Source: Candidatus Culexmicrobium cathedralense (GTDB lineage: Archaea; Thermoproteota; Methanomethylicia; Culexarchaeales; Culexmicrobiaceae). From it: 35,655 nucleotides of DNA. The stretch spans positions 1 to 35,655 of the forward strand of contig JANZKC010000005.1 in NCBI GenBank assembly GCA_025061115.1, written 5' to 3'. Under the pieces are notes generated by a model. That model was not told the DNA's origin. It did no database searches and saw nothing but the letters and a program-made list of their open reading frames with translations. Both the position numbers and the translations under genes were made by a program. This document shows, piece by piece, positions 226 through 32,415 of this stretch. Every line of letters begins with the position of its first letter. Positions within the stretch are counted from its first letter, which is position 1.

Positions 226-1287
226 CTAGTTTTCCTCTATTATTTTCTGGCATGCGCATTCTTCTATTGCATGGTTGTCTACGTATTTTTGGAAGCATTC
301 TCCAACCTTGTCCATTAGGTCGTGCCATGCTTCTTCCTGTTCTTCGTCAGATGACATTCTCAAGTCCATGGATGTTGCTAGGGCTATTGTTTTAGCTACC
401 TTGTCTCTTCTCTCCCATATTGGCCCTTCGCATTCAATACCTGTTTCCAATCCTTCCTCGTACATTCTCCTGCATTTTAGCCCCTGTTTTTCCAGCAGGG
501 ACTCCACTATGTCGTTTACTGGCCTGTCGTTGTCGAAGTACTGTAGCTTACCTTTCTCGAGGTCGACGTGGGTTCTATGCCCCTTAGCGGAGCCGACTTT
601 AAGCTCAACCCTGCTGTTCACAGCTACTCCTCTAAGCTCCGGAGCGTCTTCAGGCCAGTACAGGCCTTTCTCGTCGAACATTTTAGAGTACTTGTCCCAT
701 AGTTTGCAGAACTCTACAGCTCTTTCAGATGCCCTACCTAGGGCCAAGCATTTCTCGGAAACCTTCCGTAGGGGCCCTATTTTCTCCCTAAAATACTCTA
801 TTAGCCTATGGTAGCATGCCGTGCAGTCGTTTATAGCTGCGGTTAAAGTGTACGGTTCAACAACGCCTCTAAGCCACGTGCACCTGCGGCCCCAGATCTG
901 CTCGGCCACCTTGTCAACGCCTCTTAAATACGTTGCAGCCCGTTTAAGCCTGTCAGTAACGTTTGAAGAGCACTGTTTAAAGGAGGGAACAAGCTCCGTA
1001 TAGCATTCCCTAGACGCAATATCGACGTTGAAAACGGCTTCCTTAAGCTCCCTGATAAACCTTTCAACCCTTCCATCACCAACCAGGGGTGCAGCATCTT
1101 CGAACCTGTCAAGCGACCTGTAAACGTCAATACACCATGAGCTAACTTCACTGTACTTTGCAGACTCAGGTTTAGAAGCTAGTTCTCTCCCCTTCTCCTC
1201 AAGCTTAGATGCTTCTTCGAGAACAACATCTATGGAGAACTGCGGCAACCATGAACCTGCCAGCCTAGATCCACTGGTAGTCCACAT
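226..1287 (-). CDS. Cys-rich hypothetical protein (353 aa) with N-terminal WTTS-x6-SWLPQ motif
   Basis: Long ORF. The likely start is ATG 1287, after GGAG, which avoids overlap with the helicase. Confidence 0.8.
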   Translation of the reverse strand: MWTTSGSRLAGSWLPQFSIDVVLEEASKLEEKGRELASKPESAKYSEVSSWCIDVYRSLDRFEDAAPLVGDGRVERFIRELKEAVFNVDIASRECYTELVPSFKQCSSNVTDRLKRAATYLRGVDKVAEQIWGRRCTWLRGVVEPYTLTAAINDCTACYHRLIEYFREKIGPLRKVSEKCLALGRASERAVEFCKLWDKYSKMFDEKGLYWPEDAPELRGVAVNSRVELKVGSAKGHRTHVDLEKGKLQYFDNDRPVNDIVESLLEKQGLKCRRMYEEGLETGIECEGPIWERRDKVAKTIALATSMDLRMSSDEEQEEAWHDLMDKVGECFQKYVDNHAIEECACQKIIEEN

Positions 1288-1310
1288 TGCTTCTCCAAAA
1301 TATAATAATG

Positions 1311-2862
1311 TTATTTTAACAATATATCTTTTATTTGCCATTTAGGTTCAGTACTATATATTTTCCTCCTCCTCATGGCGTGGTCTTCAAAATACTTGAT
1401 GTGATCCCATACATCGATGACAATGCCGTACTTCTTGTTGGGCCATGGCCTAGTTATTCTCCCTACTCTTTGAAGCGCCCTTGTCGATGATTTCCCCCCT
1501 CCGGCCAAGATCAGGGTTCTTAAAGCTGGGAGGTCTAGTCCCTCATCGGCCAGAGTTGTCGCTATTATTCCATCTATTTTCTCCCTCCTTACAAGATCGA
1601 ACATTAAAGCCCTAATGTCTGGATCGACCTGCCCATAGAGAAATGCTACTTTCAATCCTAGTTTCTTACATTCCTTCTCAATTAATTCCCCATGTTTTAT
1701 CTCTTTAACTAGGATCATGAATGGTTTAGGGGCCTTGTAAGCTATTCTTGCTATTAGCTGGTTTCTTATCGGATCCTGGAAAACAGCTTTCTTAACCTTG
1801 TTGAACAACCATGGGCCTCCCCGTTTACCCTCGAAATCCTTGGCATACTTGGGGAAGTAATGTGCGAAATAGATCTTGACAGGAACAAGATAGCCTTTCT
1901 CTATTAGTTCGCTACTAAGAATCCTCCTTGGAACCATATCCCCATAGCATGCATAGATATCTAGGTCTCTGCCGTCATCGCGCCAAGGTGTAGCGCTTAA
2001 GGCTAGTCTTAAAGCGTTAGGGTTAGACATGGACGTGTACCATACTGTTCTAGCAGGTACATGTTGGCATTCATCCATTATTACTAGGTCTGCTTTCCTA
2101 TAGGTTTCATATAGTTTCAGCTTGTCTTCAACATCTGTTTCTTCAAGCAAATACTTTACTTCCTCGTCAAGGCTCTCTTCAGGGTATTCGTATGCCTCAT
2201 ATGTTCTTATAGCCCGGTAAAGTGTTTGAACAGTACAGCACACTACGTTTCTATCTATTTGGAAATAGTCTTTGTTGACTAGTCCCGCCTCCACACCGTA
2301 CTTCCTGAACCTGTCCCTAGCTTGAATCAGCAGGTCCGTGTTTAGAGATAGGAAAAACGTTTTCCCTGGCTTAAGGATCTTATGTAGTGCTACAGCTACT
2401 TCAGTTTTGCCACTTCTGGCCTGCCCGGGGGTGTTTATAGGTAAACTTTCCCCCCCTAGGCAGGTTTCCAGTGCAGGCTTGGAGTGTTGCAGCTCCTTGG
2501 AATTCTAGTTGCTTAAGTATCGATATTAGTGCTTCAAGCTGGTATTTGCGTAGAAACTTTGCCTCGTAAAGATCATAGTCTAACTCCCTATATTTAGCTT
2601 CAACACGCCCCATTTTCAGGTTTTCAGCTATCCTCTTAACCCTAACGGTTAGGCCTCTGAAGGTTGTGAAGCTTAGTTTTGAAGGGTTAAACCAGTACCG
2701 TCGTATCATAATGTACTCGTATGCTTTAATGTCAGGGTTCCACTTCTTAAGCTCATATGCGAAATACTTATCTGAAAACATCTTTAACGCTTCATACTTG
2801 GCCGGGTCATCTAGGAAAACTGTAACGTAGTTTCCATGGAAAACTGCTTTCACGTTTTCCAC
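1311..2862 (-). CDS. Superfamily 2 DExH helicase (XPB/Rad25-like), intron-split: exons 2466-2862 and 1311-2413, 499 aa
   Basis: Q motif LRKYQ; Walker A ACTG|SGKT restored by splicing; motif Ia FFLSLNTDLLIQ; DECQH; SAT; ADEGLDLP; QRVGR. Confidence 0.9.
2414..2465 (-). other. 52-nt archaeal bulge-helix-bulge intron in the helicase mRNA
   Basis: Central helix CUGG/CCAG; 3-nt bulges AAA and AAG; intron stem CCUGCCU/GGGCAGG, GGGGG/CCCCC, GUUUA/UAAAC. Cutting after the second nucleotide of each bulge gives ACU GGA AGU GGC AAA ACU (TGSGKT). Confidence 0.88.
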
Positions 2863-3074
2863 CCTGTTTTCTTAATGTATTTTTCGAAGCACATGAATGT
2901 TCTATGGTTCCAAACGGGCTCGTAAAGTCTGCACTCCCAAATTGACTTTGGAGCCTCGGAAGGTGACATTACTTCTCCTGTTCTATGGCATTTAATAACG
3001 TATCCGCTTCCTCCATGTTTCCTTATTACTTCGCAGAAGTAGCAGCTGTAGCATAGTTTAGGTGCTTTAGGCAT
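2850..3074 (-). CDS. Small Cys-rich (Zn-binding) protein, 74 aa
   Basis: Likely start MPKAPK after GGGTGG; CxxCxxC...C...C pattern. Confidence 0.7.
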   Translation of the reverse strand: MPKAPKLCYSCYFCEVIRKHGGSGYVIKCHRTGEVMSPSEAPKSIWECRLYEPVWNHRTFMCFEKYIKKTGWKT

Positions 3075-3186: not shown

Positions 3187-3711
3187 ATGTCTGAGAAGGG
3201 AATGGAAAAGCTAATAAGAACCCTTATGAGGTTCGGCATGACTAGGGAGGATGCTGAAAAGTATGCTCAAAGATATTTTCAAGCTTTAAACGAGGCTCAA
3301 AGGGTTAGTAAGGATAAGCTCGAAGAGATCAAGCGCTTCGCCTTAAAAACTCTGCCTCATAGCGATGATTTTAGAGTTAAATACGATAAGTACGATGTCA
3401 TAATAGTTCAAGTTCCAGCGGTACCTAATGTTAAAAGGACCTCAAGCGGAAACTACAAGATCGGACTACTGTGGCCAGGGGCTAAGGGATCTATTGGTGG
3501 GCCATGGATTTCGGCGTTCTTTAGCTCTAAGGAGGAGGCCGACAAGGTAGCTTCAAGGCCCGGTGATTTCTTCCTCTTGGTTGGTAAGGTTAGGACCAGG
3601 GAGTACATGGGTGGGCCAACGTACAGTATTAACGTTGCCGGATTGATTGAGCTTGGTGAAGAAGAGGTTCCTGAAGAGGTTTTCGGTGAAGAAGGTTTTG
3701 CGGAGGAGTAG
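3187..3711 (+). CDS. Putative OB-fold single-stranded DNA-binding protein
   Basis: OB-like beta pattern (ISAFF, FLLVGKVRTREYMG..YSINV), acidic C-terminal tail, next to Cas4 and a RecA-like ATPase. Confidence 0.65.
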   Translation: MSEKGMEKLIRTLMRFGMTREDAEKYAQRYFQALNEAQRVSKDKLEEIKRFALKTLPHSDDFRVKYDKYDVIIVQVPAVPNVKRTSSGNYKIGLLWPGAKGSIGGPWISAFFSSKEEADKVASRPGDFFLLVGKVRTREYMGGPTYSINVAGLIELGEEEVPEEVFGEEGFAEE

Positions 3712-3715
3712 CTGA

Positions 3716-4357
3716 ATGGAGAACGTTGACGAGCTTAGGAGGAAGATTAGGCAAGCATTCATAATGTTCGATGTTAAGCCAAGAAACCCGTATGAAATCT
3801 ATGTTACTGAAGCGGTCGGATGCCTTAGAAGAGCTTTTTTCAACATAAAGTTCAACGCTAACCCTGTTCTCGAATCAGCTGATGTAATAATGGGTAAGCT
3901 TGTGCATTTAGCGTTACCTAAGGTTCTCAAGGACATTGTTAACGCGGAGTTCGAGGTTCCTCTTGGATACAATATTTCCGGTCCATGGGTTCTAAGCGGA
4001 CGGGCAGACGCTATGGACGCTGACATGGTTTACGAGTTCAAGTTCTCTTCACCGTATAGTGATGCTAAGCCAATATATTTCATGCAGGCAAACGCATACG
4101 CTGTCATGGCTGAGAGGCCGATGTTCGCCCTGGTTATTATCGATAAGAAGACCTTCGACGTGGACATTATGGTTTCCGAAGCGGATGTTAAAGGGTTTAA
4201 CGCTGTTGTTGAAAGAGCTAAAACAATAATATCGTGTGTTGAAAGAAACGAGGTACCTCCCGGACCCGACTATGATTGGCAATGTAAGAACTGCCCTTAC
4301 GCATTAATTTGTGTGGAGGGTAAGAAATGGATAGGTCAGAAACCTCTAAAACCATAG
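3716..4357 (+). CDS. Cas4-like PD-(D/E)XK exonuclease with Fe-S cluster (solo viral type)
   Basis: N-terminal C (GCLRR), GxxxH, GRAD...YEFK, QxxxY, C-terminal CxxCxYxxxC. Confidence 0.9.
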   Translation: MENVDELRRKIRQAFIMFDVKPRNPYEIYVTEAVGCLRRAFFNIKFNANPVLESADVIMGKLVHLALPKVLKDIVNAEFEVPLGYNISGPWVLSGRADAMDADMVYEFKFSSPYSDAKPIYFMQANAYAVMAERPMFALVIIDKKTFDVDIMVSEADVKGFNAVVERAKTIISCVERNEVPPGPDYDWQCKNCPYALICVEGKKWIGQKPLKP

Positions 4358-4533
4358 GGTGGCTGGTTTACTGGTTGGGTTTAACGTTGCTAGGTGTTTC
4401 TCTTGCAATCTACTTGTTACGTTCAAGTAATCCAGTGAAGGTAGGGTTAGGGTTTGTAACGTTGATTTTAGTGGTTGCTTCAATGTCTTTCACTGCATAC
4501 TTCCTTCATAAGCTTTTAAGGAGGGGGAAATAA
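4327..4533 (+). CDS. Small membrane protein (2 TM)
   Basis: Two hydrophobic segments; GGAGG RBS. Confidence 0.7.
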   Translation: MDRSETSKTIGWLVYWLGLTLLGVSLAIYLLRSSNPVKVGLGFVTLILVVASMSFTAYFLHKLLRRGK

Positions 4534-5241
4534 ATGTCTGAAAAAACAATTGTTGAAATGGTTAAGGAGAAGGGGAAGGAAAGAGAGAAGAAGAGGATTA
4601 GCGAAATTGTTAGGAAAATACATGCGATTGTAGGATATGATACATTCCAAGTGTTTGGACCTACAGGTTCAGGGAAGACGAGTTTTGCCCTATGGTTGGC
4701 CCATGAGTTCGCAAATTCCGGACTTAAAGTATGGTATCTTGATACTGAAAGAAATCTAAGTAGGCCTCCGAAACATGAGAACATAGAGTACATTTACACA
4801 CCGGTTTTCGACGAAATATACAACTACGTTAGGAACCTTCCGAAAGCCCATCTGTACATAATCGACTCAATAGGTATCCCGGTGCTTGCTGCTTACAGTG
4901 AATCAAGCATGTACGAGAAAGGCACTATGCTCCTGAAAATGGTTACCATGGCCAACTACTTGAAAATAGCAACATACAAGAACAAAGCTATGGCATTAAT
5001 AACGAACCAGCCAGTAAGCCCCTATGGTAAAAAGGAAGTTACTGAGGAGGACCTAAGGCCCCTAGGTAGCAAGGCGCTGTTCTTAAGTAAGGAAATATGG
5101 AGGACATGGATTATTGAGACTAGTCCAAGCAGAACCATGTGCGAGATCAGAACATGGAGATCCAGGAGGTACGGTAGAGGAAAGAAGCTCTTCAGAATAG
5201 AAATAACAGACCATGGAGTTAAGGTAACTCCGCTAATATAG
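4534..5241 (+). CDS. RecA/RadB/Sak4-like ATPase
   Basis: Walker A GPTGSGKT, YLDTE, Walker B YIIDSI, LITNQ. Confidence 0.85.
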   Translation: MSEKTIVEMVKEKGKEREKKRISEIVRKIHAIVGYDTFQVFGPTGSGKTSFALWLAHEFANSGLKVWYLDTERNLSRPPKHENIEYIYTPVFDEIYNYVRNLPKAHLYIIDSIGIPVLAAYSESSMYEKGTMLLKMVTMANYLKIATYKNKAMALITNQPVSPYGKKEVTEEDLRPLGSKALFLSKEIWRTWIIETSPSRTMCEIRTWRSRRYGRGKKLFRIEITDHGVKVTPLI

Positions 5242-10858: not shown

Positions 10859-11814
10859 TGCCCTACAGCTTTACGCGCTATTTCCTCCGCCAAGTTTTCG
10901 TCTTTAACTCCGAGAGCATGTGCTAGCTCGTGGGCAACTATTTTCTCCTTCTCCTTCTCGGAAAGGGTTTCCCAGCATTCGCAGTTGTAAAGTTGCTTCA
11001 CAGGTTTAAGGTCAGGGTTGGTGGCGGCACATGCTTCGAAACCGTCTTTAACAACAACACCTTCTTGAACAACAAGCTCCACTGGCTTTAGCCGAAAACC
11101 TTTATCGGCAGCTGCCTTAATAACTTTGGGCATTATCTTTTCTATTTTCTCTTTAACCTCCGAAATACATGATGGCCTATTGACAATCCTAACCACGGGA
11201 GAAAGCTTAATTTCCGACTTTGATTTCTCCATTTCCTCAATTGTCCTTTGAATAGCTTTTATAGCCTGAATGGCTGGAGATAGTTCTTTCCTAACTGCCC
11301 TTATCTCGTTAGCTAACTCTTCAAAGTTAGTGTATCCTTCGAGAAGCTTTTTCTCAACATCGTTAATAACCATGGCGAGCTTATCGTAGGCAGCACATTC
11401 CTCGGGTGTACGGCAGAACTTCTTACCCTCCTTAGCATACATTCTCAAGGCAGGGAAGTGGTTTTCAACAAGACATGCTACACACAGCTTAGCTTCCTCT
11501 CCTTTAGCGGCCCTTAAATGGTCTTCTGAGGCTACGAGATGTTCTAGGGCCATTCTCCTAGTGTATTCTGCCGCTTCATCCCTTGTAAAAGCCGCTTCAC
11601 TACTTGTAGAGGATACTTCATGTTCATGTTCCGCCATGGTTTCTAACGGTTTCTCCTCAACCATTTTTTCCGTTTCAAACGTTTTCCCTGCGGGTGCTTC
11701 TTCTGCTTCAGGTTTCTCATATGGTAGGGTAATTTTGGGTGTTGAACTGTACGAGTCTATTAGCATGTACACTACGTTTAAAACAATGTCTTTCGCTAGG
11801 TTTTTTAAGCTCAT
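10855..11814 (-). CDS. Protein with C-terminal zincin-like metalloprotease domain
   Basis: IVAHELAHALG (HExxH) followed by E residues. Confidence 0.65.
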   Translation of the reverse strand: MSLKNLAKDIVLNVVYMLIDSYSSTPKITLPYEKPEAEEAPAGKTFETEKMVEEKPLETMAEHEHEVSSTSSEAAFTRDEAAEYTRRMALEHLVASEDHLRAAKGEEAKLCVACLVENHFPALRMYAKEGKKFCRTPEECAAYDKLAMVINDVEKKLLEGYTNFEELANEIRAVRKELSPAIQAIKAIQRTIEEMEKSKSEIKLSPVVRIVNRPSCISEVKEKIEKIMPKVIKAAADKGFRLKPVELVVQEGVVVKDGFEACAATNPDLKPVKQLYNCECWETLSEKEKEKIVAHELAHALGVKDENLAEEIARKAVGQ

Positions 11815-12146
11815 CTCTTCCTCGCCCTAGCTAAAACTATTAAGCTTAAACCTGCGAGAGCTGCTCCAGCAGCAATAATGCCCCAAGGTATTTTAGCTGG
11901 AGGCTTAGCTGTGGTCGATGTTTGAACCTTATATCTTCCAGGCTCCTTAAACGTCCATGTGAACTCGTAGTATCCTTCTCTTAAAGTTTCAGTGTCTGCT
12001 ACGATCTCGTCGTTTATTAGTAAATATATTTTAGCTCCTTCAACTGGCTCCCAGTTTTTAGTTAGCTTCCTTAGTTCCCCATGGAACACGACTGGCTCAT
12101 TAACATACGCTACTTCTGGACCGTAAAGTGTAAGCTTATATTGCAC
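11811..12146 (-). CDS. Ig-like domain protein with C-terminal TM anchor
   Basis: PVEGAKIYL...GYYEFTWTFKEPGRYKV; hydrophobic tail followed by basic residues. Confidence 0.7.
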   Translation of the reverse strand: MQYKLTLYGPEVAYVNEPVVFHGELRKLTKNWEPVEGAKIYLLINDEIVADTETLREGYYEFTWTFKEPGRYKVQTSTTAKPPAKIPWGIIAAGAALAGLSLIVLARARKR

Positions 12147-12182: not shown

Positions 12183-12815
12183 TTATTTTTTAATGGCTGA
12201 AATAAAAGCGGCTAAACCAGCAGACGCAGCCGCTAAGCCGAGAAGCCACCATACTTCTCTCGGAATCGCAGCTGGAAGCTCCTTAATGATCAAGAAGGAG
12301 AAAACAGCGACCACAACTAAACACACTGCAATAATTACCGCGGCAATTACAAGCCCTGACACTGGGCTGTGAACCTTATACCTTACTGTGACAGTGTTAT
12401 CTGCTGCTTTAATTTCCAAGATTTCAACAGGGTAAACTGCTTCAACAGCTGATTCAAGGTTTTCCCAAAGCCACTCCACAAACTCTGAAGGCAGAGGCCC
12501 AGTTTTCATAATAAGCTTAAACACATGGGGAGGCCCGGAACCGACCAGTTGAACCTCATATGTTTGAAATGGAACCACGCTTATCTTCTCAATGTTTGTT
12601 TGGAAATCATCCCTTTCTCTTCTTCCGAAAACAAGGTAAACATATGGCCATAGCCCATCAAAGTATGCGTACCCGTCATCATCAGTTACAGCTGAAGCTA
12701 CAAGGCTCATCTTTGCCGAGAAAGACACCGGATCTGCCCTGTGAACCTCAACAACAACTCCTTTCTGAGGCCTACCGTAAACGTCTACAACCCTAACTGT
12801 TAATTGCGGACTCAC
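12183..12815 (-). CDS. Membrane protein with prealbumin/carboxypeptidase-regulatory-like beta domain
   Basis: LTVRVVD..GRP..GVVVEV...TDDDGYAYFDGL; two C-terminal TM segments. Confidence 0.7.
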   Translation of the reverse strand: MSPQLTVRVVDVYGRPQKGVVVEVHRADPVSFSAKMSLVASAVTDDDGYAYFDGLWPYVYLVFGRRERDDFQTNIEKISVVPFQTYEVQLVGSGPPHVFKLIMKTGPLPSEFVEWLWENLESAVEAVYPVEILEIKAADNTVTVRYKVHSPVSGLVIAAVIIAVCLVVVAVFSFLIIKELPAAIPREVWWLLGLAAASAGLAAFISAIKK

Positions 12816-13536: not shown

Positions 13537-13983
13537 ATGGTTCAGTACAAGTGCCCTATTTGTGACCGTAAATTTCCTAGTAAAAAGAAGCTTAGAGAAC
13601 ATATGGAGAAACAGCATCAGGTAAGTGAGAACCCCCCCTCCCCCCCTCCCCCCTCGGAGCGGGCTTCGCCTACGCCAGAGGTTGCTGAGGATTTTAGAGC
13701 AATGATTTCTAAAATAGTCGATGAGAGAATTAGAGAAGTTCTGCCTGAGATTGTAGAGAAAATGAAGAAAGAGTCCGTTGTCGAAAGAGAACTAGAGGTT
13801 TCCGGTGGGCTAACATTGGCAAGGAAGGTTAAGATAGATCCGAGGGTTATCCAGCTTTACGAATACGTTCTAGCTCATGGAAGCAAAATGTCTTTCGACG
13901 AGTTCGTAAACGAAACAATCCTTGAGCACTTTACTGAATGCTTAGGTATTGAACCAGCTATAATTAGGAGGAGGGTGAAATAA
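13537..13983 (+). CDS. C2H2 zinc-finger protein with C-terminal RHH-like region
   Basis: YKCPICDRKF..KKKLREHMEKQH; Pro linker; KVKID...MSFDEFVNE. Confidence 0.8.
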   Translation: MVQYKCPICDRKFPSKKKLREHMEKQHQVSENPPSPPPPSERASPTPEVAEDFRAMISKIVDERIREVLPEIVEKMKKESVVERELEVSGGLTLARKVKIDPRVIQLYEYVLAHGSKMSFDEFVNETILEHFTECLGIEPAIIRRRVK

Positions 13984-15002: not shown

Positions 15003-15386
15003 ATGGGTTTCCTGGAGAAAGCAAGAGATGTTTTGTGGAAAATAGGTAAGGCTTTCGCAGTTGATTTATCACCGGAAATAGCGAGAGGTGTTATAGCAGA
15101 CTATCTTAGAAAAGCCAGGGTTGAAGACCTAGTAAACTACATTGAATCTAACGAGTCCGTTTTCGAAAAAATATGGGGTAGCCTTAGAGACGATGTTAAA
15201 GAGAAAATAGTTAAGACCCTATCAAACATTAAAGAAGCCAAAGACATGATAACTGTTAAAACCACGTTAGAAGCGCTTGTTGAAGCCGAAAGATACGATC
15301 TATTAGCGGTTTTCGTTAACTCCAAGAAGGCGCTTCAATGGCTTAGGAGAGAGGTTGAGCTAGCTAAGAAGACTCTTTGGCCCTAG
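15003..15386 (+). CDS. Hypothetical helical protein
   Basis: 127-aa ORF in operon. Confidence 0.7.
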   Translation: MGFLEKARDVLWKIGKAFAVDLSPEIARGVIADYLRKARVEDLVNYIESNESVFEKIWGSLRDDVKEKIVKTLSNIKEAKDMITVKTTLEALVEAERYDLLAVFVNSKKALQWLRREVELAKKTLWP

Positions 15387-15439
15387 AGTATTATGCTACT
15401 CTAAAAGCTTAAAACATCTTTTTTACATTAATTCTATCG

Positions 15440-15805
15440 GTGAAGAACGTGCCCGTTAAGCTAGTTAAAGTTGGAACATCGGCTGTCGTAGGTTTAGTAG
15501 ATATTGGGTTGGAAAAACTAGATGAAATGAAGGGATGGGTTGAGCCATTCAAAAACACACACGACATTTTCAGAGCAGGTGCTTTCGCATTCGGCCTCAT
15601 CAACGAACTCATGGGTTTAGGTATTGTTCCAAGCGAAGTTGCCGAATCCATGATGGACGCTAGCTTACCGCTCTTAGAAAAGTCAATATATGGGCTTGTA
15701 AAGTCAGTAACAGGAGCAGGGTACAGGGAGATACGCTTAAGAAAAATAAGGGAGGAAACTAGTAAAGCCCCGCATTTTAGAACCTCAGCGCTTGTAAGCG
15801 TTTAG
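15440..15805 (+). CDS. Hypothetical, possibly membrane-associated virion protein
   Basis: Gly/Ala-rich amphipathic segments; upstream of the putative capsid gene. Confidence 0.6.
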   Translation: MKNVPVKLVKVGTSAVVGLVDIGLEKLDEMKGWVEPFKNTHDIFRAGAFAFGLINELMGLGIVPSEVAESMMDASLPLLEKSIYGLVKSVTGAGYREIRLRKIREETSKAPHFRTSALVSV

Positions 15806-25531: not shown

Positions 25532-26542
25532 ATGGACTGGTCCCAAGTTCTAAAAACAGCACTTGAAGAAGCCAGAAAGTACTGGTACCAATATTCTGAA
25601 CCATTAACCCTAAGAGGGCTCTTCTATATCCTGGTCTCCAAGAACGTTATACCTAACACTAAATCAGCATATAAAAGGCTAAGCGCCGTACTGGCCAAGG
25701 CACGGTATAGAGGGGAGTTTCCATGGTATTATTTAAAAGATGTTACTAGAAAAGTACAGTATCTTGAACCATGGACCTACTATCCTACAAAACCTCTTAG
25801 CGAAGAAGAAATATTGAAGATAATTGAAGACTATGTTAACAACCACTTCGACGTCTCAATTAACCCATGGGATGATCAGCCAAAAAGAGTGATCGTGGTT
25901 GTTGAGAAAGAGGCCCTAGGAGATCTTGTTGCTGCATTTGTGAAAGAAGTGTTTAAACATGGAGTTTACCAGGTAAGAGTTATTAAAGGATATGATAGTG
26001 CAACGGATGTTAAGAAGGTAGCTGAAGATGTTGAATCAATAGATAGTAGAGGTAAAATACCGGTGGTCCTTCAGCTAGGAGACTATGATCCATCGGGAGA
26101 AGACATTGTAAGGGACTTCCGTGAAAGAGTTAAAATGCTTTCTAATGTTGAAAACATTGTTTTCGAGAAAGTAGCTGTAACAGCAGATCAAATATTGGAG
26201 CTGAACCTGCCACCTAAGCCGGAGTCGGCAGATGAAATTGCTAAGCTAAAGAGGGATCCAAGATATCCTAAGTACGTTGAGAAACTTAAGAGGGATCCTA
26301 AGCTTAGACCGCTGGTTGAACAGTATGGAGGACTAGTCCGTGTAGAGCTCGATGCGCTAGTAGCTTTAAGGCCTGAAGACTTCAAGAAAATCCTCAGAAA
26401 AGCCATAGAGAAACACTTTGACTGGAACATTTACAATAATGTTACCAAGAGGAAAAAGGAGGAACTAGGGAAAAAAGCAGAGGAATTCAAGAAGCAAACC
26501 ATGGAGAACCTGAAGAAACTACTTAAGAAGCAAGGTGAGTAA
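25532..26542 (+). CDS. Toprim-domain protein of the Topo VI-A/Spo11/JetD-like group
   Basis: TLRGLFY (winged-helix Tyr), VVVEKEAL, GDYDPSG, VELDAL. Confidence 0.85.
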   Translation: MDWSQVLKTALEEARKYWYQYSEPLTLRGLFYILVSKNVIPNTKSAYKRLSAVLAKARYRGEFPWYYLKDVTRKVQYLEPWTYYPTKPLSEEEILKIIEDYVNNHFDVSINPWDDQPKRVIVVVEKEALGDLVAAFVKEVFKHGVYQVRVIKGYDSATDVKKVAEDVESIDSRGKIPVVLQLGDYDPSGEDIVRDFRERVKMLSNVENIVFEKVAVTADQILELNLPPKPESADEIAKLKRDPRYPKYVEKLKRDPKLRPLVEQYGGLVRVELDALVALRPEDFKKILRKAIEKHFDWNIYNNVTKRKKEELGKKAEEFKKQTMENLKKLLKKQGE

Positions 26543-26988: not shown

Positions 26989-27154
26989 TTCCGCTTCTAA
27001 CTTCTCCACGGTCCAATATAGACTTTCCTTTAAGCCCAAGATCCCACATGTGCCCGCAGAACCTGCATTTAGCATAGTAATGTAGGGAACCCTCAATAAT
27101 CTCAACATTTGACCTTCCGCAAACAGGGCACCTAAGCTTCACTTCTCCCACCAT
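26957..27154 (-). CDS. Zn-ribbon protein
   Basis: CPVCG...CRFCGH. Confidence 0.7.
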   Translation of the reverse strand: MVGEVKLRCPVCGRSNVEIIEGSLHYYAKCRFCGHMWDLGLKGKSILDRGEVRSGNGEKILCFKM

Positions 27155-27861
27155 GCGGGCCTAATTGTTTTCCTGTAAACCGTTACCCCGTATGATTCAA
27201 GAAGCTCTATTAGCTTAAGCGTCTGCTCCAGAGACGGCTCGGGCAACTTGTTGTTGTAGTTGTCGTATCCTACATAGACGAATTCAGGGTTTATTTCAGC
27301 TATTTCCTTGGAGAACTTGTAAACGTCTCTTATCTGTATTATTGGCTCAACTGAAACCATTAGCCTTACGTTCCCATTAACCATTCTAATCCACTTCATT
27401 GCGTTAATTCTCCTTGAAGGAGAAGGAGCATTGCTTATACCGTATGCCCAATATACTTTGTCGAAGTCCGTTTCTACGGTAGCACCTAAAATAACGTTAT
27501 CCATGTGTGAAAGCTCATCCAAGAACTCAAAGTACCTAGCAGGGTTCTTTGTTAGGAAAAGAAAAGTTGTTTCAGGGAATTTCCTAATATGGCTGATAAC
27601 CGTTTCAATCCAGAAGTCTTTAACCCACCAGCCCCACATATCACCCATGTCACTGACGAAGATAAATTCACCTGGTTTAAACTTTTTCCTAAGCTCTTGA
27701 TGATGAAACTTAGGCTTAAAACCTTCACTATACTTCCTAGTGTTTTTAAGCCTAGTCTCAACAAGTTTCCTAGCCCAACAGTATTTACATAAATGTAGGC
27801 AACCGGTAATAACATTCCATGTCTTTGTCACTTTATGGAACATTCTTGACCTCATTGCCAT
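27139..27861 (-). CDS. Phage Gp37/Gp68 (DUF5131) radical-SAM-like protein
   Basis: TWNVITGCxxxCxYCWA, IFVSDMGD, FLTKNP, VSVEPI. Confidence 0.85.
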   Translation of the reverse strand: MAMRSRMFHKVTKTWNVITGCLHLCKYCWARKLVETRLKNTRKYSEGFKPKFHHQELRKKFKPGEFIFVSDMGDMWGWWVKDFWIETVISHIRKFPETTFLFLTKNPARYFEFLDELSHMDNVILGATVETDFDKVYWAYGISNAPSPSRRINAMKWIRMVNGNVRLMVSVEPIIQIRDVYKFSKEIAEINPEFVYVGYDNYNNKLPEPSLEQTLKLIELLESYGVTVYRKTIRPAWWEK

Positions 27862-31680: not shown

Positions 31681-32415
31681 TTAGATCACCTCCTCAAGGG
31701 TTTTCTGCCTTAAAATATCCCTAGCGTAGATTCTCCTATTAGCCACGAAGAAGGCAGATCCTTTACTCTTCATCTTGCTTTCAAGCTCAACGAATCTGCG
31801 GAAGAAATCAGGGAACCGGGCCCTTAAAACCATAAGCTCCTTCTCACTCATGAAAACACCGCAGCAGCATGTCTCCTTTACACCGATCCTATACCATGGA
31901 GGATAGGGTAAACCATGCTCCTCAATATATTTCTCCACCTGTTCATCAGACCAGTCGATAATGGGGCAATAACCCCATGCAAGAGCGTCCCTCTTAAATA
32001 TTATTTGAGGTAGATTGGCTCGTCTAGGAGACTCGCTACGCCTTAACCCTAAAACCTCTGCTTTAGATCCTTTAAACCTCTTAACATACTGTATTATCGG
32101 TTTGAGTTTTAAATGGTAGCAACACCACCTCCTAGTTTTCTTAGGGAAACCATACTTCAAAACCATGTCTTCAAAACTTATTTCCGGCCTTAAAACCACC
32201 AGATCCCATCCAAGACTCTTAGCAACCCTTCTAACATATTCTTCAACACCGGGAAGCATAATAGTAGTGTCAACGTGTAAAACCTTAATCTCGAGGTCTA
32301 GTCCCCTAGTATCCTCTATGAAATAATGCGTAGCAACCAAACTATCCTTGCCACCGCTGAAACATGGAAAAGCATACTTAATCCTATACTTCACAACAAA
32401 ATCCCTAGGCCTCAC
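31681..32415 (-). CDS. PAPS reductase family (PP-loop) protein
   Basis: FSGGKDS, VDT, RWCCYHLKLKP, GLRRSESPRR, PIIDWS, C-terminal Cys cluster. Confidence 0.9.
   Translation of the reverse strand: MRPRDFVVKYRIKYAFPCFSGGKDSLVATHYFIEDTRGLDLEIKVLHVDTTIMLPGVEEYVRRVAKSLGWDLVVLRPEISFEDMVLKYGFPKKTRRWCCYHLKLKPIIQYVKRFKGSKAEVLGLRRSESPRRANLPQIIFKRDALAWGYCPIIDWSDEQVEKYIEEHGLPYPPWYRIGVKETCCCGVFMSEKELMVLRARFPDFFRRFVELESKMKSKGSAFFVANRRIYARDILRQKTLEEVI

Follow-up and report, generated by a model that had tools for sequence, protein, structure and literature searches.

How can a gene whose nucleotide-binding motif is cut in two by a frame-shifting insert still encode a complete helicase? The question arises in a 35,655-nt stretch of archaeal DNA (the window) that makes up the entire contig JANZKC010000005.1 (C5) of a binned assembly of Candidatus Culexmicrobium cathedralense (GCA_025061115.1, here G000; 1.98 Mb, 25 contigs). 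On its minus strand a 52-nt insert, 2465..2414, separates TG from SGKT within the Walker A motif of a helicase gene. We hold with good confidence that these 52 nt are a bulge-helix-bulge (BHB) intron spliced by the host enzymes EndA and RtcB, an ORF-less mini-intron from a selfish set that targets conserved motifs of this helicase. The support for this reading comes from the junction in an intron-less relative, a 52/51-nt length variation, BHB inserts in other relatives, selection on the exons, and the presence in the binned host of EndA, RtcB and an intron in cbf5.

The minus-strand open reading frame (ORF) 2862..2401 reads LEFQGAATLQACTG, with LQACTG, and then enters an unrelated tail, NLPRGGKFTYKHPRAGQKWQN, before its stop codon. 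The sequence SGKTEVAVALHKIL, with SGKTEV, lies in a different frame of the same strand and continues to a stop at 1311. Deletion of 2465..2414 by coordinates produced a 1500-nt ORF of 499 aa reading LQACTGSGKTEV, so that both the splitting of the Walker A motif and the consequence of the exact cuts were as described in the first-pass annotation of this DNA. The Walker A sequence ACTGSGKT is present only once the insert is removed; MDECQH is also present in the helicase. From the ORF reading and homology we assign 2466..2862 (minus strand) to exon 1, which encodes the N-terminal domain up to LQACTG together with the first base of the Ser codon and starts with GTG at 2862 or, as in the homolog P0017, with GTG at 2853. 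The proposed EndA-type BHB intron of 52 nt follows at 2414..2465 (minus strand; cuts between 2466 and 2465 and between 2414 and 2413), and exon 2, from SGKTEV to the stop, occupies 1311..2413 (minus strand). Exon 1 gave a match over 2464-2850 in a genome search (E 9.9e-49). ResIII (PF04851) and Helicase_C (PF00271) were found above the Pfam cut-offs on exon 2, and matches to XPB/Rad25 fell below the NCBIfam cut-off and reached E 1e-14 against PDB sequences. Judged by these matches, the protein is a distant XPB/Rad25-like superfamily 2 relative and not an XPB ortholog.

The exon junction is fixed by P0003, an uninterrupted homolog of 495 aa that reads LQACTGSGKTEVAVALHKV. In tblastn comparisons, residues 1-130 of P0003 aligned with exon 1 at 60% identity and residues 130-495 with exon 2 at 73% identity, and the spliced junction TG/SGKT (slashes mark insertion points throughout) is the junction of P0003. 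Alignment with an intron-less homolog, which had been suggested as a check, thus returned the predicted junction. GAA occurs at both edges of the insert, and as a result only four equivalent cut placements give the homology-defined junction.

We compared contigs from four DNA runs (X1-X4) over window positions 1200-3000; X1 is the probable source sample, and its contigs were built by a different assembler. A 3106-nt contig of X1 (record 1) was identical across the stretch, insert included. A 767-nt contig of X2 (record 9, covering 1759-2525) differed at 15 positions and carried the insert without an indel, and a 1723-nt contig of X4 (record 26, covering 2137-3000) showed 36 differences, with a G absent at 2450 that reduces the insert to 51 nt. 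The base deleted in X4 sits in the region of a G-run, 2451-2457, whose partner strand in the stem has only five C. An artefact of assembly or sequencing would fit with a metagenome bin and with the position of the 52/51 difference in an error-prone homopolymer; the insert is nevertheless carried by contigs from a different assembler and from three samples, and the independent contigs of X1, X2 and X4 that span it answer the concern, raised in the first-pass annotation, that it might be absent from the DNA. A self-splicing group I or group II intron is countered by the length of 52 nt, which is far too short for a ribozyme, and by Rfam, of which no family reached its gathering score in the window and no ribozyme was found at E up to 1 in positions 4100-5100 of L164, a related contig whose helicase carries a longer insert described below. 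Artefact and ribozyme both appear extremely improbable.

The 51-nt form is also represented in P0017, a protein from a metagenome-assembled genome at NCBI that is 93% identical and is the exact read-through translation of this form (TGNLPRGESLPINTPGQARSGKT). Because 52 nt shift the reading frame and 51 nt do not, the insert is not maintained for translation. Record 3 of X1 (depth 9), from a more distant relative, aligned to the window as far as 2411 and then continued as ASTLQCATGG/GKT, which is the sequence of P0004; this element is without an insert at the Walker A site. The intron at the Walker A motif (site 1) is accordingly carried by the window, X2 and X4 but not by X1 record 3, P0004 or P0003. 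Separately, an X3 contig joins 2408 to 2510, with zero X3 depth over 2420-2480, and this joint may represent a variant with a different or diverged Walker A insert.

A short insertion, from a small mobile DNA or a replication slip, could also have broken the Walker A motif of a gene that is now decaying. Consistent with such a pseudogene, the insert breaks both the reading frame and the P-loop, its inverted-repeat ends with the flanking GAA...GAA could mark a very small element and its target duplication, and the 16 listed runs holding the element provide no RNA data on splicing. Against it, the frames of exon 1 and exon 2 are open for 135 and 367 codons, respectively, no second copy of the insert was found in the 1.98 Mb of G000, and the variants that carry the insert differ mostly at silent positions. 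Of 207 differences among variants 40 were listed, 37 of them in exons and taken singly; 29 of the 37 are synonymous, 25 of the 31 listed for exon 2 fall at third codon positions (binomial p 9e-8), and two of the eight listed replacements (D>N, P>L) recur in P0017. Mostly synonymous differences combined with open exons imply that the gene has not been dead since the insertion, and point to purifying selection on the exons in lineages carrying the intron; the pseudogene-like decay that had been named as evidence against splicing was not seen. In addition, three other conserved positions carry inserts in this helicase family, and every DNA-verified insert restores its motif exactly by BHB excision; a decaying gene does not account for exact restoration at four sites. 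We consider a pseudogene quite unlikely.

EndA, the archaeal splicing endonuclease, cuts a BHB motif after the second nucleotide of each bulge. The minus-strand RNA around the insert has two 3-nt bulges, AAA and AAG, on opposite strands with the 4-bp helix CUGG:CCAG between them. In the minimum free energy (MFE) fold and in the motif scan, the 5' strand of this central helix, CUGG (2468..2471, minus strand), lies in exon 1 and is followed by the bulge AAA (2467-2465), and the 3' strand, CCAG (2416..2419, minus strand), lies at the 3' end of the intron and is followed by the bulge AAG (2415-2413). The intron between them folds into a stem-loop (h'; 2420..2464, minus strand; MFE fold) that begins with 7 bp, CCUGCCU (2464-2458):GGGCAGG (2426-2420), and continues with a GGGGG:CCCCC stem and a terminal hairpin. 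On the exon side, UG (2411..2412, minus strand; from sequence and MFE fold) can pair as the 3' half of an exon helix with CA (2473-2472), giving the 3-nt AAG bulge and an exon helix of 2 bp; an alternative in the MFE fold pairs GCC (2478-2476) with GGC (2410-2408) in 3 bp and leaves AAGU unpaired as a 4-nt 3' bulge. The flanking helices are therefore at least 7 bp on the intron side and weak, with 2 bp or the alternative 3 bp, on the exon side. From the motif as previously drawn, the 4-bp helix, the long stem and a 2-bp exon helix can be reproduced, and the 3-nt bulge on the 3' side gives way to a 4-nt bulge in the preferred fold; the earlier description holds, down to its coordinates. The unconstrained MFE fold of 2485..2395 had an energy of -34.1 kcal/mol (z = -2.0), with 6 of 200 shuffled sequences folding equally well.

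We also considered how often such a motif occurs by chance. A strict BHB pattern, defined by a Watson-Crick central helix, an intron stem of at least 7 bp, an exon helix of at least 2 bp and an intron of at most 120 nt, was found 14 times in the window, whereas 30 shuffles had between 0 and 10 matches, on average 3.8. A strict motif at the homology-defined junction with the correct length has a chance of ~1e-5, a rough estimate from the scan counts. The significance of the insert thus derives from the coincidence of the BHB with a junction fixed independently by homology, together with the inserts in relatives. Scanning for BHB motifs as a means of finding further introns in the window was abandoned as too noisy: a loose pattern matched 365 times on both strands, against an average of 237 over 20 block shuffles, and thousands of times when long introns were included. 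Such scans also marked a G-rich run (GGGGGAGGGGGG-like, minus strand) at 13635-13660, upstream of a C2H2 zinc-finger ORF, that gives many spurious BHB matches. Two BHB-like motifs would, if removed, fuse neighbouring ORFs: 15343-15431 (plus strand; 9-bp stem, no exon helix) would join ORFs 15003-15386 and 15440-15805, and 12204-12106 (minus strand) would join ORFs 12183-12815 and 11811-12146. Both are chance-expected at loose thresholds.

Relatives of the helicase are interrupted at other conserved motifs. In L164, a 28.8-kb metagenome contig, the gene is interrupted at TTLADE/GLDLP, in motif V, by an 808-nt insert (4201..5008) with a GACG:CGUC central helix, AAA and AUG bulges, a closing stem of 13 bp and, on the exon side, a GGCC:GGCU helix. 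Of these, the central helix, the 5' bulge and the 13-bp stem were retained in the MFE fold of the whole 870-nt region, and cutting after the second bulge nucleotide restored TTLADEGLDLP. An ORF inside this intron (4215-5006) extends to the intron's 3' end and encodes 264 aa with a LAGLIDADG_3 domain (E 3.5e-10, above the cut-off) and an N-terminal helix-turn-helix. A search of the protein collection with this endonuclease returned the protein itself and two weak relatives, and no PDB sequence matched it.

A second DNA-verified case, site 2b, was found in contigs of X3 and X4, which have 34 extra letters at window position 1966, within WRDDGR/D. Counting base 1966 on both sides yields a 35-nt intron with a GCCG:CGGC helix, AGA and UCA bulges and an 11-bp stem. 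Canonical excision of this build restored the intron-less sequence exactly, whereas the alternative build fails, and the tail of P0017, which ends in DDGREESGT at a stop, is compatible only with the 35-nt build. The window is without this intron; the variant carrying it is ~95% identical in DNA, and the variants with 35 nt at 1966 have the site-1 intron as 51 nt. Sites 1 and 2b therefore both show the presence/absence polymorphism of mobile introns.

A census of the family was made by aligning the 120 listed homologs out of 582 matches. Among the 22 best, nine are affected (P0001, P0002, P0004, P0009, P0014, P0015, P0017, P0019 and P0022, of which P0001 and P0002 are fragments from the window itself), 12 are uninterrupted at all sites, and P0021, from a 1468-nt contig, is not judgeable. 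The other 98 of the 120 showed no insert at these sites, several of them being N-terminally incomplete. The Walker A site is affected in P0017 and in P0009, which begins MVHN-SGKTE. Inserts or truncations occur at WRD/DGRD in P0004, P0015 and P0014, and P0014 has a 39-aa insert at DGR/D. At TTLADE/GLD (site 3), P0014 and P0022 have inserts of 10 and 14 aa, and P0004, P0015 and P0019 (the L164 protein) are truncated. The site-3 inserts start IAAGG, IVAGG or IAVGG, and RH ends both the in-frame inserts of P0022 and P0014 and the 3' end of the L164 intron; these shared ends imply that the site-3 inserts are homologous, with and without an endonuclease ORF. When the exon-1 ORF was used to look for proteins ending at site 1, no match was returned, and the window's own ORF was missed as well. 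The 52-nt intron of the window contains no ORF and thus encodes no homing endonuclease. Taken together, we lean towards the view that the replication helicase gene of ~30-36 kb elements, possibly viruses, of hydrothermal crenarchaea serves as a homing ground for EndA-dependent introns, with at least four sites in conserved motifs, one LAGLIDADG intron, and otherwise ORF-less minis of 30-117 nt.

The family inserts also bear on whether the gap might be crossed in translation, by ribosome hopping over ~50 nt or by a programmed frameshift. In T4 gene 60, ribosomes hop a 50-nt gap between matched take-off and landing codons, with a stop codon after take-off; the 52 nt in our gene are close to that length and hold a stable hairpin. 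The edges of the insert, GGA AAC at 5' and CAG AAG at 3', offer no matched codons, however, and no stop codon directly follows the take-off site. A frameshift in the 2504-2404 overlap would place ~17 foreign residues within the P-loop, and the 35-nt and 808-nt inserts, the latter with its own ORF and stop codons, could not be hopped and yet share the BHB layout. We give recoding very little credence.

Splicing of the helicase transcript would depend on enzymes of the host. G000 has two EndA genes (PF01974) above the Pfam cut-off and one RtcB gene (PF01139), and the contig is assigned to this host by binning only. The EndA genes lie in the regions of C1:462959-463216 and C2:433801-434061, and RtcB lies at C2:508224-509531. 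In the fused two-domain enzyme, the catalytic C-terminal half is matched by the 186-aa EndA paralog, which keeps Tyr, His and Lys at positions which we take to be those of the catalytic triad; the 174-aa paralog matches the N-terminal half, has a weak 'subunit beta' match and is without that His. These features place the G000 enzyme in the two-subunit crenarchaeal type. Introns were called by aragorn in 17 of the 47 tRNAs of G000, and the rule of cutting after the second bulge nucleotide reproduced aragorn's intron start and length in 3 of 15 host tRNAs (introns up to 130 nt), with the other 12 missed because of unusual calls by aragorn or relaxed motifs. Applied to L164, site 2b, host cbf5 and the TG/SGKT of the window, this rule restores the uninterrupted sequence each time. 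Among the aragorn calls in G000 were a tRNA-Phe with a 637-nt intron (C2:258860-259571) and a tRNA-Ser with an 1895-nt intron (C4:125827-127817), which could be false calls or long, possibly ORF-bearing introns.

The cbf5 gene of G000, which encodes a pseudouridine synthase (locus L265/L266), is split into two frames by a 20-nt insert at C2:254526-254545. Its MFE fold, with CGGA:UCCG, CCCU:GGGG, bulges AGA and AAA, and GCCCU:AGGGC, is a canonical hBHBh' in which the exon helix has 4 bp with one bulged A. Excision gives AGHGGTLDPKVTG (GTLDPKVTG) in a 338-aa frame, and the position of the intron, at the catalytic Asp codon, is that of the known crenarchaeal kind. If the bin is right, this host appears already to depend on the splicing of an mRNA BHB intron. 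The dependence of the Walker A intron on host tRNA splicing, as claimed in the first-pass annotation, is well supported by comparison through the junction, the BHBs of relatives and the presence of EndA and RtcB.

Several points weigh against this reading. The exon helix of 2 bp, or 3 bp with a 4-nt bulge, makes the motif a relaxed BHB and not a strict hBHBh', the fold only modestly beats its shuffles (z = -2.0), and site 1 is without covariation, its sole variant being one deleted G. BHB-like motifs are common by chance, and the shape by itself proves little. The inserts of P0004, P0014, P0015 and P0022 are known as protein only, so that their BHBs were inferred by degenerate back-translation, and the 35-nt build at site 2b is an interpretation of an entry reading 'from 1966 to 1966', with which the P0017 tail agrees. 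The evidence for selection covers only 40 of the 207 variant differences. None of the 16 listed runs is RNA, and neither a spliced junction nor a circularised intron was observed. Finally, the contig is tied to G000 by binning (contamination 7.65%, similar G+C), and no nucleotide match, such as a spacer, was found between C5 and the other G000 contigs.

On the reading that we prefer, an EndA/RtcB-spliced intron, CUGG of exon 1 would pair in the pre-mRNA with CCAG at the 3' end of the intron, flanked by the two 3-nt bulges. The two-subunit splicing endonuclease of the host would cut after the second nucleotide of both bulges, and RtcB would ligate the exons and probably circularise the intron. 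The ligated mRNA would then carry ACTGSGKT, an intact Walker A motif, and encode the 499-aa helicase. We propose that the gene belongs to an element of ~30-36 kb, a virus or plasmid of a hyperthermophilic crenarchaeon, in which a set of introns, at least one of them with a LAGLIDADG homing endonuclease, would have colonised Walker A, WRDDGRD and TTLADEGLD. The sequence, its fold, the junction, the presence/absence polymorphism, the introns of relatives and the enzymes of the host are observed; cleavage, ligation, homing and replication of the element in the binned host are steps that we infer.

A genuine BHB intron could in addition be regulatory, coupling the helicase to host EndA/RtcB activity or confining productive infection to hosts whose endonuclease has broad specificity. 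With so weak an exon helix, splicing may call for the two-subunit crenarchaeal enzyme, and the intron is retained in three sampled variants. Close relatives, however, are without the intron and others have introns elsewhere, which is a pattern of selfish gain and loss, and EndA and RtcB are, to our knowledge, essential housekeeping enzymes in all archaea, hence a poor timing signal. Because the distribution is patchy, spans several sites and includes a LAGLIDADG ORF, selfish, homing-derived introns explain it better than a switch does. The timing or host-range switch put forward in the first-pass annotation therefore finds no support, and we regard an added regulatory role as unlikely; the intron of the window, which has no ORF, most likely descends from a mobile intron, as its remnant or derivative, and is not a regulatory device.

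The surroundings of the helicase give some indication of the kind of element that carries it. A divergently transcribed module (3187-5241) beside the helicase consists of a 174-aa ORF (3187-3711), a Cas4-like nuclease (3716-4357; phrog_1706, E 5.6e-23) and a Sak4/RecA-like ATPase (4534-5241; Pfam/PHROGs). Together with the helicase, this module is syntenic in L162 and, in part, in L164; related contigs are 20-34 kb long. The nuclease/ATPase pair presumably resembles the conserved operon of rudiviruses and lipothrixviruses, which in rudiviruses is one for single-stranded DNA binding, nuclease and annealing. Most window ORFs are without a family (29 ORFs scanned with Pfam, 20 with PHROGs); a GT2 glycosyltransferase, a C2H2 zinc-finger protein and a transglutaminase-like protein were recognised. 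Three further genes, a topoisomerase-like PHROG (25532-26542; E 5.4e-45), a DUF5131/radical SAM gene (27139-27861) and a PAPS-reductase-like gene (31681-32415), are accessory genes common on phages and mobile elements.

No capsid or packaging family was found in the 29 ORFs scanned with Pfam or the 20 scanned with PHROGs, and no virus hallmark emerged when ORFs 15003-15383 and 15440-15802 were compared as possible paired capsid genes or from an Atlas search. Searches of phage records (nucleotide records and tblastn) gave no match to the window, and neither terminal repeats nor a circular overlap of the contig was found. Three window proteins, the helicase included, found no IMG/VR relative as single queries. 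Profile scans with a helicase alignment (A1) reached at most 37% identity in genome contigs and, in IMG/VR, only distant helicases at no more than 31%. The 61 nearest genomes and 401 genomes of the phylum yielded no close homolog of the helicase; among the 401, a single genus has an uninterrupted chromosomal homolog, at 44-46% identity, in three genomes. The description of the gene as viral is thus not borne out by a capsid or packaging gene or by close IMG/VR matches. The gene content looks virus-like or plasmid-like and indicates a mobile element, and for a virus in particular the balance of evidence is about even.

If the proposed splicing takes place, the substrates of the archaeal splicing endonuclease would extend to mRNAs of mobile elements, BHB introns would invade and persist in protein genes in the manner of group I introns and inteins, and an extrachromosomal element would rely on the tRNA-splicing enzymes of its host for a replication protein that it cannot do without. 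Spliced protein genes are rare in archaea, and the helicase gene would be one of them. Gene callers split such genes or read through the inserts (P0001, P0002, P0017, P0014), and the introns are thereby systematically hidden. The family offers a testable system, in which the RNA and the enzymes are both defined, for the spread of introns in archaea, and for whether protein-dependent splicing of mRNA is commoner than gene callers reveal. For archaeal viruses and plasmids we found no BHB intron described in a protein gene, in what was mainly open literature, where a prior report is possible; the claim that such an intron is undescribed in archaeal viruses accordingly holds as far as we found, apart from unproven 12-bp inserts in a rudivirus.

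The nearest known case is the crenarchaeal cbf5 pre-mRNA intron, reportedly the subject of work by Watanabe et al. in 2002. Excerpts from Yokobori et al. (2009; PMC2738675) describe it as short, of the BHB type and patchy in occurrence, placed within the coding sequence at the codon for the catalytic Asp and presumed to be cut by hetero-oligomeric EndA. The helicase intron is likewise a short BHB intron in coding sequence at a catalytic codon, and patchy among relatives; cbf5, in contrast, is one housekeeping gene on the chromosome and has a single site, whereas the helicase belongs to a mobile element and has at least four sites, one of them with a homing-endonuclease intron. Yoshinari et al. 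(2006) are said to tie, in their title, the two-subunit crenarchaeal EndA class to pre-mRNA splicing. That class is described in the abstract of PMC2724299. According to extracts of PMC7714728, cbf5 held the sole BHB intron reported outside tRNA and rRNA up to 2020, and HVO_1309 of Haloferax volcanii has one in its 5' untranslated region. Both HVO_1309 and the helicase would supply mRNA substrates to the tRNA splicing endonuclease, but the HVO_1309 intron lies in an untranslated leader of a chromosomal, euryarchaeal gene served by a homodimeric enzyme, and that of the helicase in coding sequence. The rudivirus inserts mentioned above are putative 12-bp introns in protein genes that keep the frame and are perhaps translated, with splicing undemonstrated (Peng et al., as relayed in excerpts of PMC2738675). 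The helicase insert, by contrast, shifts the frame, forms a BHB and has its junction fixed by an intron-less allele.

Archaeal rRNA and tRNA BHB introns encode LAGLIDADG homing endonucleases such as I-DmoI and I-PorI. The L164 intron is built like these, with a BHB core, a long closing stem and a LAGLIDADG ORF inside, and the ORF-less inserts of P0022 and P0014 at the same site resemble degenerated mobile introns. The I-DmoI and I-PorI introns reside in genes for stable RNAs, whereas the helicase introns reside in a protein gene, where splicing must also restore the frame. Parts of PMC6125680 state that all known archaeal introns were of the BHB type bar a few group II introns, and then report group I introns in archaea. 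Group I introns with homing endonucleases occur in phage genes, and inteins in replicative helicases, as the abstracts of PMC3984707 and PMC10643990 relate. The likeness is close, in that these elements are selfish, strike conserved motifs of viral replication and nucleotide metabolism, often at several sites, and are removed harmlessly; the difference lies in the removal, which for group I introns and inteins is by ribozyme or protein splicing and for the helicase introns would be by host EndA and RtcB. The mechanism is therefore a known one, and what is new is its setting: a replication gene of a mobile element, several sites within it, and a BHB intron with a homing endonuclease in coding sequence.

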